From positions 108,028 to 172,027 of the forward strand of contig JAIYCX010000028.1 in the NCBI GenBank assembly GCA_027487795.1: a stretch of 64,000 nt of DNA. Reading direction: 5' to 3'. The position numbers and the translations under genes are program-made. Positions 58,860-64,000 of this stretch are shown piece by piece. Source of the DNA: Pseudomonadota bacterium (GTDB lineage Bacteria; Bdellovibrionota_C; UBA2361; SZUA-149; DAOLCO01). Numbering within the stretch: the first letter of the stretch is position 1; every line of letters begins with the position of its first letter. The notes beneath the pieces were generated by a model. It had not been told where the DNA came from, ran no database searches, and worked only from the letters and a program-made list of their open reading frames with translations.

Positions 58860-61800
58860 CTACTTAAAGCCTCTCAGCCCTGCACAAAAAGCGTTAATTT
58901 CTCTTGTAGTGAACGCTGTGTTGTTTTGTCTTTTGCTAGCATTCGAATAGGGTATGGCTGTGGTAGAGACTACTTGCCCGGCGGCTCTTACTGTAAGCTG
59001 AATACTTGTATTTCTCTTTAAAGTTGGAACTCTTCCGCTTAGTGTTCTGCTTGCAAAATTTCTGTCTATTGTAAAATTAGCGATTATATTAGGGCAGACA
59101 TTACCTTCAAAACTTGCTCTTAATTCTAGGTTTTGGTTAATAAAAGATCTATTAGAGTCCGTGAATATCAATCTACCAGTTTGAGTTGATATTAATATAT
59201 TCCTAGACACTCGTCTTCGGAACTCACTTTCTGAGTGTATTTGAAGTACAGATGCGGGCTGACTAGGTTGTGCAGATGGGCTCATGCTAGGGCTTGAGGA
59301 AGCTGAGGTACTAGGGCTACTGCTAGGCTTTACTTCGCTGCTAGTACTTGGACTAGCGCTTGGTTTTAGCTCTGGACTACTACTTGGGCTACTACTTGGG
59401 CTACTACTTGCACTACTGCTCCGGCTTGGTTTTACTTCGCGGCTGCTACTTGGACTACCGCTTGGGCTTCGAACAATTATTGGCGAACTACTTGAGCTAG
59501 CAGATGCGATAGAACTTTTGCTCGCAGAGGCCGATCTGGAAGCGGATGGAGATGCTGAGATTGATGCAGAGGTTGAGGAACTGGCGCTCCTACTTGGTGA
59601 ACTACTTCGTGAACTGCTTGGACTTTTGGAGCTACTAGGGCTGGCTGAAATACTTGAGCTAGGCGATCTGCTAGGGCTAGACGAGATGCTTGAGCTAGGT
59701 GAAACACTTATACTCGCACTAGCACTGGGTGATACAGATCTAGATGCTGAGACTGAGGTGCTAGCAGAGGCGGACTTACTTGGTGAGCTACTAGGCGAGC
59801 CGCTAGGCGAAGTACTAGGTGAGGTACTAGGAGACGCGGAGATAGAGCTAGTGGCACTTGATGAAGGTGATCGACTTGGTGACCTTGAAGGACTAGGGCT
59901 TGGGCCGTAACCGTAGTGGTTCTCTTCTTGACCTATGAAAATAGAGGAACAAATAATGCTTAATTCAGTACTATAAATACTAGTCATAGCACCTTGAGCT
60001 CTAGGATCTACTTCTATATTTTGCGTTTTATTATACCTATCTATCACTGGTTTTAAGACAAGCGGTATAGTGCGCGGATAATTCAATGGTCGGATATTAA
60101 CATAGAGTAATGTCTGCATGTAAGTACCTCTACCGTCTTCAGATTTTCTTAGATCCCCATACCTAGAATTGAATAAAATTCTAGGGCAGTCTTGTCCTAA
60201 GATTGATGCTCTAATTGATAAATTTGCATCATCTCCGTAAGAATTTTTAGGCGCAAAAAAATTAATTTGATTTTTAATTCTTGAACCGATTTCAGTAGGC
60301 TCTGAAGTAAATTTATTATTCTCGATTGTAGAATAATTATTGAAGAACCCAAAGGTGATATAAGATACATCAAGGTAAGGAGTAGGACTCGCTGAAGAGC
60401 TGCTACTTGGGCTAGCTGAAACTCTACTTGTTGACACCGAGCTACTTGGTGAGGAACTCGCAGAGGCCGATACGCTGCTCGACACAGAGCTACTTGGTGA
60501 GGCGCTACTTGAGGCCGATACACTTGCAGAAGGTGAATTGCTACTAGAGCTACTTGGTGATACACTAATCGATGCTGACCTGCTTGGTGAAGGACTAGGA
60601 TTATTATTTCTAAGAGTAAAGCCCAAGGAAGTCGAGGAACAGATTTCTGCCATCTCTGAGTTTGATATTGAAGTCATAGTTCCAGCTGCTTTTCTGTCTA
60701 GATCAATAACATTAGTAGAAGTTATTAACTTTCCATCTTGGTAGAATTCAAAGACCATAGGTACAGTTAATGGGAAATTAACTGTTCTCAAATTGGCATA
60801 GATAATTGAATTTTCTGGATTACCGGTTCTCTGCATTTCACTATATTTAAAATCAAATAGCGGTCTAAGACATCTCTTACCTAATATATTTAAATGAATC
60901 CAAAATGTAGTTGAAGGCGTATAAACCCATTTTTTTGTTTGAATATTAAATGAATTGTTTTGGTTAACCGAACTTGAAGAAAATTGGTTAAATCTATATG
61001 CGCCATTTATTGCTCCGCCAGCAGCATAAATAGTAAAACTTGTAGCAGGGCTTACAACTGGGCTTGGGCTAATACTTGGGCTTGAGCTCGGGCTTGAACT
61101 TGGGCCAGGGCTAGGATTAGTTCCGTCCCCAAAATTACAATCACAAGTATTAGGATCAAAACGACCACTAGCATTAATGCAATTAGTTCTGGCCATTACA
61201 TCATTTCCTAAACACTGATGCGTACAGCTGACATCACTAAAGGTTTTTAAACCATATACTGGAGGAGGATTAGCTCCTATTACACATTCACAAGTTCTTG
61301 CATTTAAAGTCCCAAGCTTACAAGTTGGCTTTTCCCAGTCTATTGGGCTGCCTGTTGAAGAGTTAGGATTTTCGCACCAACATTTATTTATATTTAATGT
61401 TGAAAAAATTCCTTTTGGATCTTTTTCACATATTGGTTTGCCGATAGATTCTACTTGTCTCTCAGGACAAGAACACCTCTTTAAAAGTGGGTCAAATTTG
61501 TGAGGAGGTTTACAACAAGATTCTCCAATACAAGTAACAAATTCACGCGAAGACTTAGTTGGGTCATTTGGATTTGGCCACTGCATAGTGCAATCTCCAT
61601 TTCGAGCTGCTAATCTGCCATCTGCGCAAGGTGTTGAGATAACGGGCTTGCATACAAAAGGTGCCTTTTCTTCACGTACTTCACCAACAGAGCAAGATCT
61701 AAATATAAAGCCTAATAAACTTGGTAATTCATTATTTTCACCGCCTTCCCCTTCACCACCAGATCCACCTCCCGATCCTCCACCAGCTCCTGAAATCATA

Positions 61801-64000: not shown

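Follow-up and report, generated by a model that had tools for sequence, protein, structure and literature searches.

A very large cysteine-rich modular protein from a rare bacterial family without database description, and the large, putatively secreted proteins encoded beside it

What is the product of an exceptionally long, cysteine-rich bacterial gene, and with what might it work? This question is raised by one end of a 64-kb stretch of DNA from a Pseudomonadota bacterium (NCBI GenBank assembly GCA_027487795.1, contig JAIYCX010000028.1, positions 108,028 to 172,027), which was analyzed over its whole length of 64,000 nucleotides (nt) and is called the window here. The gene in question, hereafter the target, is a single open reading frame (ORF):

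58860-64000, reverse strand: target ORF, with its stop codon at 58860-58862 and its 5' end beyond the window edge; at least 1712 amino acids (aa), including 88 cysteines (Cys)

The target product is a very large, disulfide-rich modular protein that belongs to a rare family without a database description. Its sequence features and its gene neighborhood suggest, with a probability that we place at roughly 0.55, that it may belong to a module of two proteins outside the cell, in which it would be the scaffold or recognition subunit and the product of the gene directly downstream its partner.

The target is a genuine protein-coding gene whose 5' end is cut by the window edge. Its frame is free of stop codons for 1712 codons (58863-63998, reverse strand), up to the edge of the window. 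The first listed start codon is a TTG at 63416, and because the frame stays open upstream of this position and through the window edge, this TTG is not the start of the target. The encoded residues include 313 Ser and 175 Pro in addition to the cysteines, which make up about 11% of the Cys region, and the 5.1-kb open frame lies in DNA of 33-41% GC. The possibility that such an ORF is a spurious or decaying product of low-complexity sequence can be considered effectively refuted. Its linkers do also yield a long antisense ORF, and a decayed paralogous fragment (a relic, described below) lies nearby, but these observations are outweighed by the stop-free length of the frame, by homologs with E values down to 6e-68, and by paired cysteine conservation together with conserved synteny. 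Furthermore, the relic has gathered frameshifts and the target has none. The antisense ORF (59284-59910, forward strand) encodes 208 aa rich in Leu, Gly and Glu opposite Ser/Pro linker 3, and is almost certainly a by-product of linker codon composition rather than a gene.

The N-terminal portion of the target, through its second Cys block, is arranged as follows:

aa 1-28, reverse strand: partial N-terminal sequence, non-repeat, with 3 Cys, running on beyond the window
63729-63914, reverse strand: Pro-rich tract, with GP(S/T)NPx hexapeptides at aa 29-66 (about 63801-63914), then NP-rich to aa 90
aa 91-119, reverse strand: Ser/Ala/Thr linker
63099-63641, reverse strand: Cys block A, aa 120-300, 18 Cys
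63447-63542, reverse strand: type-I CC unit A, in block A (VCCHDHITNSATCISPDECCRKNPTSNINKQC)
63261-63404, reverse strand: NGN unit 1, in block A
63102-63224, reverse strand: NGN unit 2, in block A
aa 300-394, reverse strand: Ser linker, 8-Cys segment and DP/TP linker
62910-63029, reverse strand: 8-Cys segment, aa 324-363, between the Ser-rich linker and the DP/TP linker
62079-62816, reverse strand: Cys block B, aa 395-640, a duplicate of block A
62649-62750, reverse strand: type-I CC unit B, in block B
62451-62612, reverse strand: NGN unit 3, in block B
62271-62405, reverse strand: NGN unit 4, in block B
62085-62210, reverse strand: NGN unit 5, in block B

An initial annotation of this DNA had quoted five consecutive Cys-rich units ending in an NGN-containing motif. 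All five are present in the target as quoted. When the 64-kb window is translated in six frames, the regular expression CC-x(20-50)-NGN-x2-P-x-C-[LI] matches five times, on each occasion in the target frame, and composition-preserving shuffles of aa 120-640 did not yield even one match (0/20,000). The NGN-unit observation is real and far beyond chance. On alignment, the CC, G-x-G, NGN, P and C positions are invariant among the five units. However, these are not consecutive but arranged 2 + 3 in two blocks, each with a type-I unit (CC..C.SPD.CC.KNP...C) at its head. Blocks A (aa 120-300) and B (aa 395-640) are duplicates of one another (E = 4e-21, 35% identity). The earlier picture of the Cys region was therefore sound for the units themselves, but it overlooked the block duplication and the type-I unit. 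It had also placed hexapeptide repeats in an off-window continuation of the N-terminus. The frame does continue off-window, but the hexapeptides lie within the window and it is non-repeat, Cys-containing sequence that runs on. No relative of the 8-Cys segment (aa 324-363) was found.

The remainder of the target consists of the following parts:

61875-62039, reverse strand: 10-Cys segment, aa 654-708, previously described as EGF-like
aa 709-765, reverse strand: Gly/Ser spacer
61128-61703, reverse strand: mid domain, aa 766-957, 20 Cys, the best-conserved part of the family
about 27 residues, reverse strand: Ser/Pro linker before CT1
60603-61046, reverse strand: C-terminal module CT1, aa 985-1132, beta-rich, 2 conserved Cys
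60381-60602, reverse strand: Ser/Pro linker 2, 74 aa, between CT1 and CT2
59928-60380, reverse strand: C-terminal module CT2, aa 1207-1357, 33% identical to CT1
59253-59927, reverse strand: Ser/Pro linker 3, about 225 aa, with mixed Ser codons and imperfect DNA repeats
58863-59252, reverse strand: C-terminal module CT3, aa 1583-1712, ending ...C..L..F(K)

Three C-terminal modules joined by Ser/Pro linkers had been proposed, and both the modules and the modular, linker-joined layout are supported. CT1 and CT2 align with each other at E = 1e-18 (33% identity). CT3 is only a weak match to CT2 (E = 0.003), but its alignments with the terminal modules of relatives have E values of 1e-6 to 1e-10. 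By alignment, its counterpart is the single terminal module of relatives P0001, P0002 and P0005, with two invariant Cys and the ending ...C..L..F. This C..L..F motif is conserved at the C-termini of the target (58863-58880, ...CAGLRGFK) and of the same three relatives, with Phe as the last or penultimate residue, and it is missing from the internal copies CT1 and CT2.

The family to which these modules belong was recovered by an exhaustive phmmer search with aa 395-960 against 1.84 billion representative proteins, which returned nine relatives (E = 6e-68 to 5e-4). All nine are unnamed or 'hypothetical' and fall in singleton or near-singleton clusters. A word-indexed homology search with aa 120-720 found no relatives and missed even P0003 (E = 3e-40 in the exhaustive search), probably because low-complexity words from the linkers saturated its list of 8000 candidates. 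A profile search with the CT modules gave no matches, neither the Cys region nor the mid-domain alignment picked up relatives in scans of genome and metagenome contigs, and a search of GTDB species representatives with the Cys region did not recover even the target itself.

The family is defined here by a Pro-rich linker, a type-I unit (CC..C.SP..CC...N.(N)KAC) that lies downstream of it and, after this unit, CC...GxG...NGNxxPxC units in tandem. This arrangement occurs twice in the target and also in P0003, P0005, P0006 and P0018, and NGN units alone occur in P0001, P0002, P0004 and P0009. The N-terminally complete relatives P0005, P0006 and P0018 share a plan in which a signal-peptide-like N-terminus is followed by an N-domain of about 200-250 aa (distantly shared among the three), a long Pro/Thr linker, a type-I unit and NGN units. 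The general plan of the family is a signal peptide, an N-terminal domain, a Pro/Thr or Ser/Pro linker, one type-I unit and several NGN units. Short forms (P0003, P0018) end after the NGN units. Long forms (P0001, P0002, P0004-P0007) add a Cys-rich segment and a mid domain, and are defined by a 10-Cys segment, a 22-Cys mid domain and a terminal 2-Cys module ending C..L..F; the target is of this kind. Its mid domain aligns with those of P0001, P0002 and P0004-P0007, and its 10-Cys segment is clearly conserved in P0001, P0002 and P0004 and more loosely in P0005-P0007. The target copy is the most elaborate known in the family, with the type-I plus NGN block doubled, the terminal module tripled and long Ser/Pro spacers added.

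Several relatives are longer than their listed ORFs indicate. P0001 (L084, 1-290) and P0003 (L085, 1-538) are open to the starts of their contigs and begin in Ser/Pro or Pro/Thr linkers. P0004 (L089, about 4690-5290) has at least 200 aa more upstream, with further NGN-like units, beneath small antisense ORF calls that look spurious. In L086 (2250-3911), P0002 is preceded at a distance of 64 nt by a 532-aa ORF that carries a signal peptide and breaks off within a Ser/Pro linker, and the two are probably one gene. Signal-peptide-like N-termini are seen in P0005, P0006, P0018 and the 532-aa ORF of L086. One of the samples in which both P0005 and P0018 occur is a co-assembly from Lake Mendota, a freshwater site (PMC11374980). 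The contigs of these two relatives have GatCAB, SurA-like, ValRS or Flp pilin genes as well.

Do these modules correspond to anything already described? No Pfam family matched the whole target protein at E <= 0.1, and no Cys-rich family, EGF included, matched any of eight isolated target segments at E <= 10. Eight relatives likewise lacked a match to any Pfam family. NCBIfam gave no family at E <= 0.01, and its one hit was a compositional match of NF033849 (ser_rich_anae_1) to the Ser/Pro linkers only. Because that match scores 14.4 bits against a cut-off of 650 bits and reflects linker composition only, identification as a serine-rich repeat glycoprotein was rejected. PHROGs, plasmid and phage searches yielded no matches to the target. 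In the Protein Data Bank (PDB), a single-sequence search with the target returned only weak compositional matches and the family profile returned none. An AlphaFold2 model of aa 395-960, built from a 10-sequence family alignment, has predicted local distance difference test (pLDDT) values mostly of 70-85 in the mid domain, of 50-70 in the NGN units (small beta-hairpins) and below 35 in the type-I unit, and a Foldseek comparison of the moderate-confidence models with the PDB gave nothing better than E = 4. The target modules thus appear to fit no described family or recognizable fold, a conclusion that is not final because the models are only moderate. The initial annotation had judged the Cys unit to be undescribed. 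The hidden Markov model and structure searches that covered this unit agree, in that no known family was matched in Pfam, NCBIfam, PHROGs or PDB sequence/profile searches and no significant fold match was obtained with the moderate-confidence models.

Other labels fared less well. The description of part of the protein as EGF-like is not borne out, since the isolated 10-Cys segment has no Pfam match at E <= 10 and the six-Cys profiles of EGF, hEGF, EGF_CA and Laminin_EGF are unmatched in the target segments. The term surface protein is likewise unsupported, as no anchor or sorting signal was found. Specifically, no hydrophobic or transmembrane segment is predicted over all 1712 aa, and searches of the target for a type IX secretion system (T9SS) C-terminal domain and for PEP-CTERM, LPXTG and autotransporter signals were negative. 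T9SS cargo was rejected on the lack of a C-terminal domain matching TIGR04183, TIGR04131 or Pfam equivalents. Substrates of sortase, exosortase or rhombosortase (LPXTG, PEP-CTERM and GlyGly-CTERM), which end in a motif followed by a hydrophobic helix and a basic tail, were rejected on the C-terminus (...REINAFCAGLRGFK), the missing hydrophobic segment and the lack of an NCBIfam match. Pfam and NCBIfam presumably contain the T9SS, PEP-CTERM and LPXTG models that such signals would match. A collagen-like triple helix was also rejected, because Gly occupies every sixth residue in GP(S/T)NPx and there is no Gly-X-Y run; matches of the target to collagen peptides in the PDB (E = 0.02-0.3) are compositional. 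A reading of the target as a phage tail fibre was rejected as well.

The pattern of cysteine conservation provides a first indication of how these modules might be built. Twenty-two Cys are conserved in the mid domain of the family, and the target lacks exactly two of them, at W807 (61578-61580, reverse strand) and V821 (61536-61538, reverse strand). P0005 and P0006 lack a different pair of mid-domain Cys, and the count is even in every member that covers the whole domain. In the NGN units, the third and fourth Cys are either both present (8 units) or both absent (3 units), and each of the latter three is the last of its series. Because Cys are lost only in pairs, these data argue for real disulfides, and the paired loss at the W807 and V821 positions predicts which two mid-domain Cys would be bonded to each other. 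In the NGN units, the third Cys is predicted to pair with the fourth. As for the target itself, the number of Cys is even in block A (18), in the mid domain (20), in each CT module (2) and in the segments with 8 and with 10 Cys. Together, paired loss and even counts suggest that the disulfides are intramolecular.

These counts bear on the doubtful alternative that the target protein has a structural role in an envelope, cyst or matrix, where, after export, disulfides between molecules would cross-link it to form an insoluble layer, with its partner acting as an assembly factor or second wall component. Chlamydial OmcB, the Cys/Pro-rich wall proteins of planctomycetes and the spore-coat proteins of Dictyostelium offer likenesses for such a role. 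The abundance of Cys, both overall and within the Cys region, and the long Ser/Pro spacers would suit it, as would the failure to detect an enzymatic or toxin domain with Pfam and NCBIfam, and the odd count in block B could leave a free thiol for cross-linking. However, the paired losses and the even counts outside block B point to intramolecular bonds instead, and so rare and patchy a family (nine representatives in singleton or near-singleton clusters) would be unusual for a core wall component. There is also no Pfam match of any kind, and Pfam is understood to include models for planctomycete YTV and chlamydial outer membrane proteins.

The strongest indication of what the target might work with comes from its neighbors. 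Downstream of the target, the window carries the following:

55654-58797, reverse strand: partner A, 1047 aa, with a signal-peptide-like start, 62 nt downstream of the target stop
55326-55600, reverse strand: relic of a target-like 3' end, frameshifted, between partners A and B, its stop abutting the partner B ATG
52702-55326, reverse strand: partner B, 874 aa, with a hydrophobic N-terminus

The initial annotation identified the target gene but overlooked both downstream partner genes and the relic. At seven loci in six genomes (the intact gene and the relic of the window being counted as two), a family member or relic is followed by a large same-strand ORF without a Pfam domain. Wherever the locus had enough flanking sequence, this partner, of about 790-1190 aa, lies directly downstream on the same strand:

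Window: target followed by the 1047-aa partner A; 62-nt gap with a ribosome-binding-site-like AGAGGGTGG and no terminator-like site between
L084: P0001 followed by an 881-aa partner of type A; 3-nt gap; 28% identity overall, core E = 2.5e-30
L089: P0004 followed by a 1191-aa partner with a type A core; 97-nt gap; E = 1e-17 to the 1047-aa ORF
L085: P0003 followed by an 806-aa partner of type B; overlapping; E = 4e-91 to the 874-aa ORF of the window
L086: P0002 followed by an 833-aa partner of type B; 3-nt gap; 38% identity over the full length
L087/L088: P0018 followed by a 792-aa partner of type B; overlapping; E = 3e-71 to the 874-aa ORF
P0005 locus: P0005 followed by an 824-aa partner of unclassified type, starting 1 nt after the stop

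Six readable partners form two families, A and B, which are unrelated by profile-profile comparison, and nearly all readable partners start with a signal-peptide-like hydrophobic segment. Neither family has a Pfam match, an NCBIfam match above threshold or a significant PDB sequence/profile match. The conserved core of partner A contains hydrophobic segments (PVFGTAL...). Its C-terminal region of about 280 aa in the window (55654-56499, reverse strand) is an extra region missing from the L084 homolog, and carries a kinase-like catalytic-loop motif (HPDFNNSGNVLI...IDFDG). Matches of this region to UbiB (E = 0.006), Kdo kinase (E = 0.017) and ABC1 (E = 0.13) are weak and sub-threshold. Partner B matches NCBIfam MakB over aa 448-546 with E = 1.3e-3 and 18.1 bits, against a cut-off of 240 bits. 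With this score and nothing significant in PDB sequence/profile searches, partner B does not qualify by sequence as a ClyA/Mak-type alpha-pore-forming toxin.

The window holds both partner types in series, in the order target, partner A, relic, partner B. In the relic, the end of CT2 is matched at about 93% DNA identity, with a 1-nt insertion, and a CAAG microhomology junction then leads into sequence that matches the end of CT3 at about 85% identity. This structure indicates that a second target-like gene once preceded partner B, that it underwent a CT2/CT3 deletion removing the long linker, and that it was then almost entirely lost, a history that we read from the surviving fragment.

The same relic bears on the earlier proposal that the simple-sequence DNA of the linkers is recombinogenic. 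This proposal has weak footing, as the repeats are imperfect and short and the Ser codons mixed. The arrays detected by Tandem Repeats Finder are short (2-4.6 copies, 73-93% matches), with one exception, the sole perfect tandem repeat (18 nt x 2.3 copies, 63805-63846) within the hexapeptide tract. Direct-repeat families in the linkers are 60-82% identical, and the linkers make use of every one of the six Ser codons (AGT, AGC, TCA, TCT, TCG, TCC). Because the repeats are imperfect and the Ser codons mixed, high-frequency slippage is not expected from the sequence. Modules have nevertheless been gained or lost in evolution, as reflected by one C-terminal module in relatives versus three in the target and by the CT2/CT3 deletion chimera. 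A slower recombination between modules is documented by the relic.

The partner genes invite the proposal of a toxin encoded by two genes, with the target product as its receptor-binding (B) component. Cys-knotted modules would then attach to the surface of a prey or host, the active component, membrane-damaging or enzymatic, would be partner A or B, and the partners would be akin to exchangeable toxin cassettes. Such a system would agree with the strict pairing, in which large secreted partners are drawn from two unrelated families, and with the cassette-like duplication in the window. The same could be said of the weak match of partner B to MakB (E = 1.3e-3, 18 bits), the hydrophobic segments in the core of partner A and the kinase-like motif, with its weak matches, in the extra C-terminal region. 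However, every toxin-like match falls far below its family cut-off (18 versus 240 bits for MakB), PDB sequence/profile searches with both partners gave no significant match, and the loci show neither an immunity gene nor a known secretion system. We consider this proposal unlikely.

We therefore return to the scaffold or recognition subunit. According to this model, the target product would be exported by Sec, as inferred from the signal peptides of its relatives. Its cysteines might then be oxidized after export to give small disulfide-knotted modules, which could perhaps act as binding or recognition heads on extended Ser/Pro linkers, and the target might in this manner serve as a scaffold or targeting subunit for its partner. 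Each of these last steps is put forward with low certainty. Gene order is conserved in seven loci, and on this basis the target and its large secreted downstream partner may be co-transcribed and functionally coupled in a joint action.

Several points weigh against this model. No binding activity, anchor, secretion-system signal or known domain function was found with Pfam and NCBIfam. The N-terminus of the target itself lies off-window and its signal peptide is unseen. The structure models are only moderate (for aa 395-960, mean pLDDT 58 and predicted template modeling score 0.33), and block B holds an odd number of Cys, 23. Gene adjacency demonstrates co-inheritance, not physical interaction. 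Finally, because partners A and B are unrelated, one shared mechanism is not guaranteed.

A more ambitious version of the scaffold or recognition model is possible, though speculative. The loci might represent a two-gene extracellular system in which an NGN-repeat protein is obligately coupled to an exchangeable partner, A or B, as a targeting-plus-effector cassette (a binary toxin or an adhesin-effector pair) of poorly sampled, partly freshwater bacteria. The tandem A and B partners of the window would then have been caught in mid-turnover.

Is the target of bacterial ancestry at all? The remaining window, at about 33% GC, is bacterial and diderm, with genes for Lnt, CheV, GlgB, a LipB-LipA fusion, CtpB, a Ser/Thr kinase and a trypsin-like protease, and no tRNA or rRNA genes were found within the 64 kb of the whole window. 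The genome is taken to be diderm because Lnt is encoded. Modules dense in disulfides and Ser/Pro linkers of mucin-like character are seen more typically in the extracellular proteins of eukaryotes, and the target region has a higher GC content than the remaining window (0.39-0.41 versus about 0.33). Both features could be expected if the target were a eukaryote-derived or eukaryote-mimicking protein, resembling extracellular matrix and acquired horizontally by a host-associated bacterium. This origin is very improbable. The higher GC content is explained by a composition rich in Ser, Pro, Gly and Cys, there is no Pfam match to eukaryotic Cys-rich domains or any others, and the 6 of the 9 relatives with retrieved loci sit in tightly packed gene arrangements of bacterial style.

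Beyond partner B, and convergent with it, is a 3441-aa ORF (42145-52470, forward strand) with a hydrophobic C-terminal segment and no Pfam or NCBIfam match. A 694-aa ORF of L089, also convergent with the partner gene, resembles it weakly (E = 7e-5, about 26% over a stretch of 128 aa), such that ORFs of this type are a possible third conserved neighbor. Three further large ORFs of the window (7556-9481, 14191-15894 and 34493-36097) are without a family match. All 8 window proteins tested form singleton clusters at 90% identity, with sequences from an NCBI contig and from Logan run SRR16126830, and the LipB-LipA fusion has, as the best among the matches listed in species representatives, a 45% identical protein from a Balneolaceae metagenome-assembled genome. 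Among the matches listed from the collections covered there is thus no close relative, and the lineage of the window seems to be poorly sampled.

Our findings constitute a solid lead into uncharacterized protein families rather than a mechanistic surprise. What they add to the initial annotation is a small family, its architecture, the covariation of its presumptive disulfides, the A and B partner genes and the relic. Should the pairing prove functional, it would define no fewer than three protein families as new (those of the NGN-Cys protein and of the two partners, A and B) and, with them, a new and conserved gene module for extracellular proteins in bacteria that reference collections hardly represent. 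A protein with this many cysteines is unusual for a diderm bacterium, and would lend itself well to studies of oxidative folding in the periplasm or outside the cell. There is also a practical lesson, as gene callers split or truncate the genes of this family at low-complexity linkers (P0001, P0003, P0004 and the pair of 532-aa and 884-aa ORFs in L086) and the family was detected only by exhaustive search.

How, then, does the target compare with known systems? Fibrillar or modular bacterial adhesins combine repeat or stalk domains with a binding head on extended linkers. The target resembles them in its very large size, its inferred export, its repeated small modules, its long Ser/Pro spacers and the copy-number differences between relatives. 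It differs in that its domains fall into no known family of stalks, adhesive domains or anchors, no anchor to the cell wall or outer membrane could be found, and its gene is obligately paired with that of a large secreted partner. The disulfide-rich extracellular modules of EGF, laminin-EGF and TNFR type are also among the closest systems, although the EGF profile is unmatched in the target. Among Gram-negative lineages, chlamydial OmcA/OmcB and planctomycete YTV proteins are Cys-rich envelope proteins. Like the target, these are exported bacterial proteins that are unusually rich in Cys and sometimes in Pro, but the target has no Pfam match and the Cys covariation of its family suggests intramolecular pairs. 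Long Ser-rich tracts are shared with the Gram-positive serine-rich repeat glycoproteins and ser_rich_anae_1, from which the target is set apart by its score (14 versus 650 bits), by the lack of an LPXTG motif and by the presence of Lnt in its genome. Lastly, although the MakB match of partner B lies far below threshold and partner A is without similarity to anything, the conserved same-strand secreted pair, with its tiny or overlapping intergenic distances, recalls, as a functional analogy, secreted toxin or adhesin pairs encoded by two genes, such as the ClyA/Mak-type operons of alpha-pore-forming toxins.

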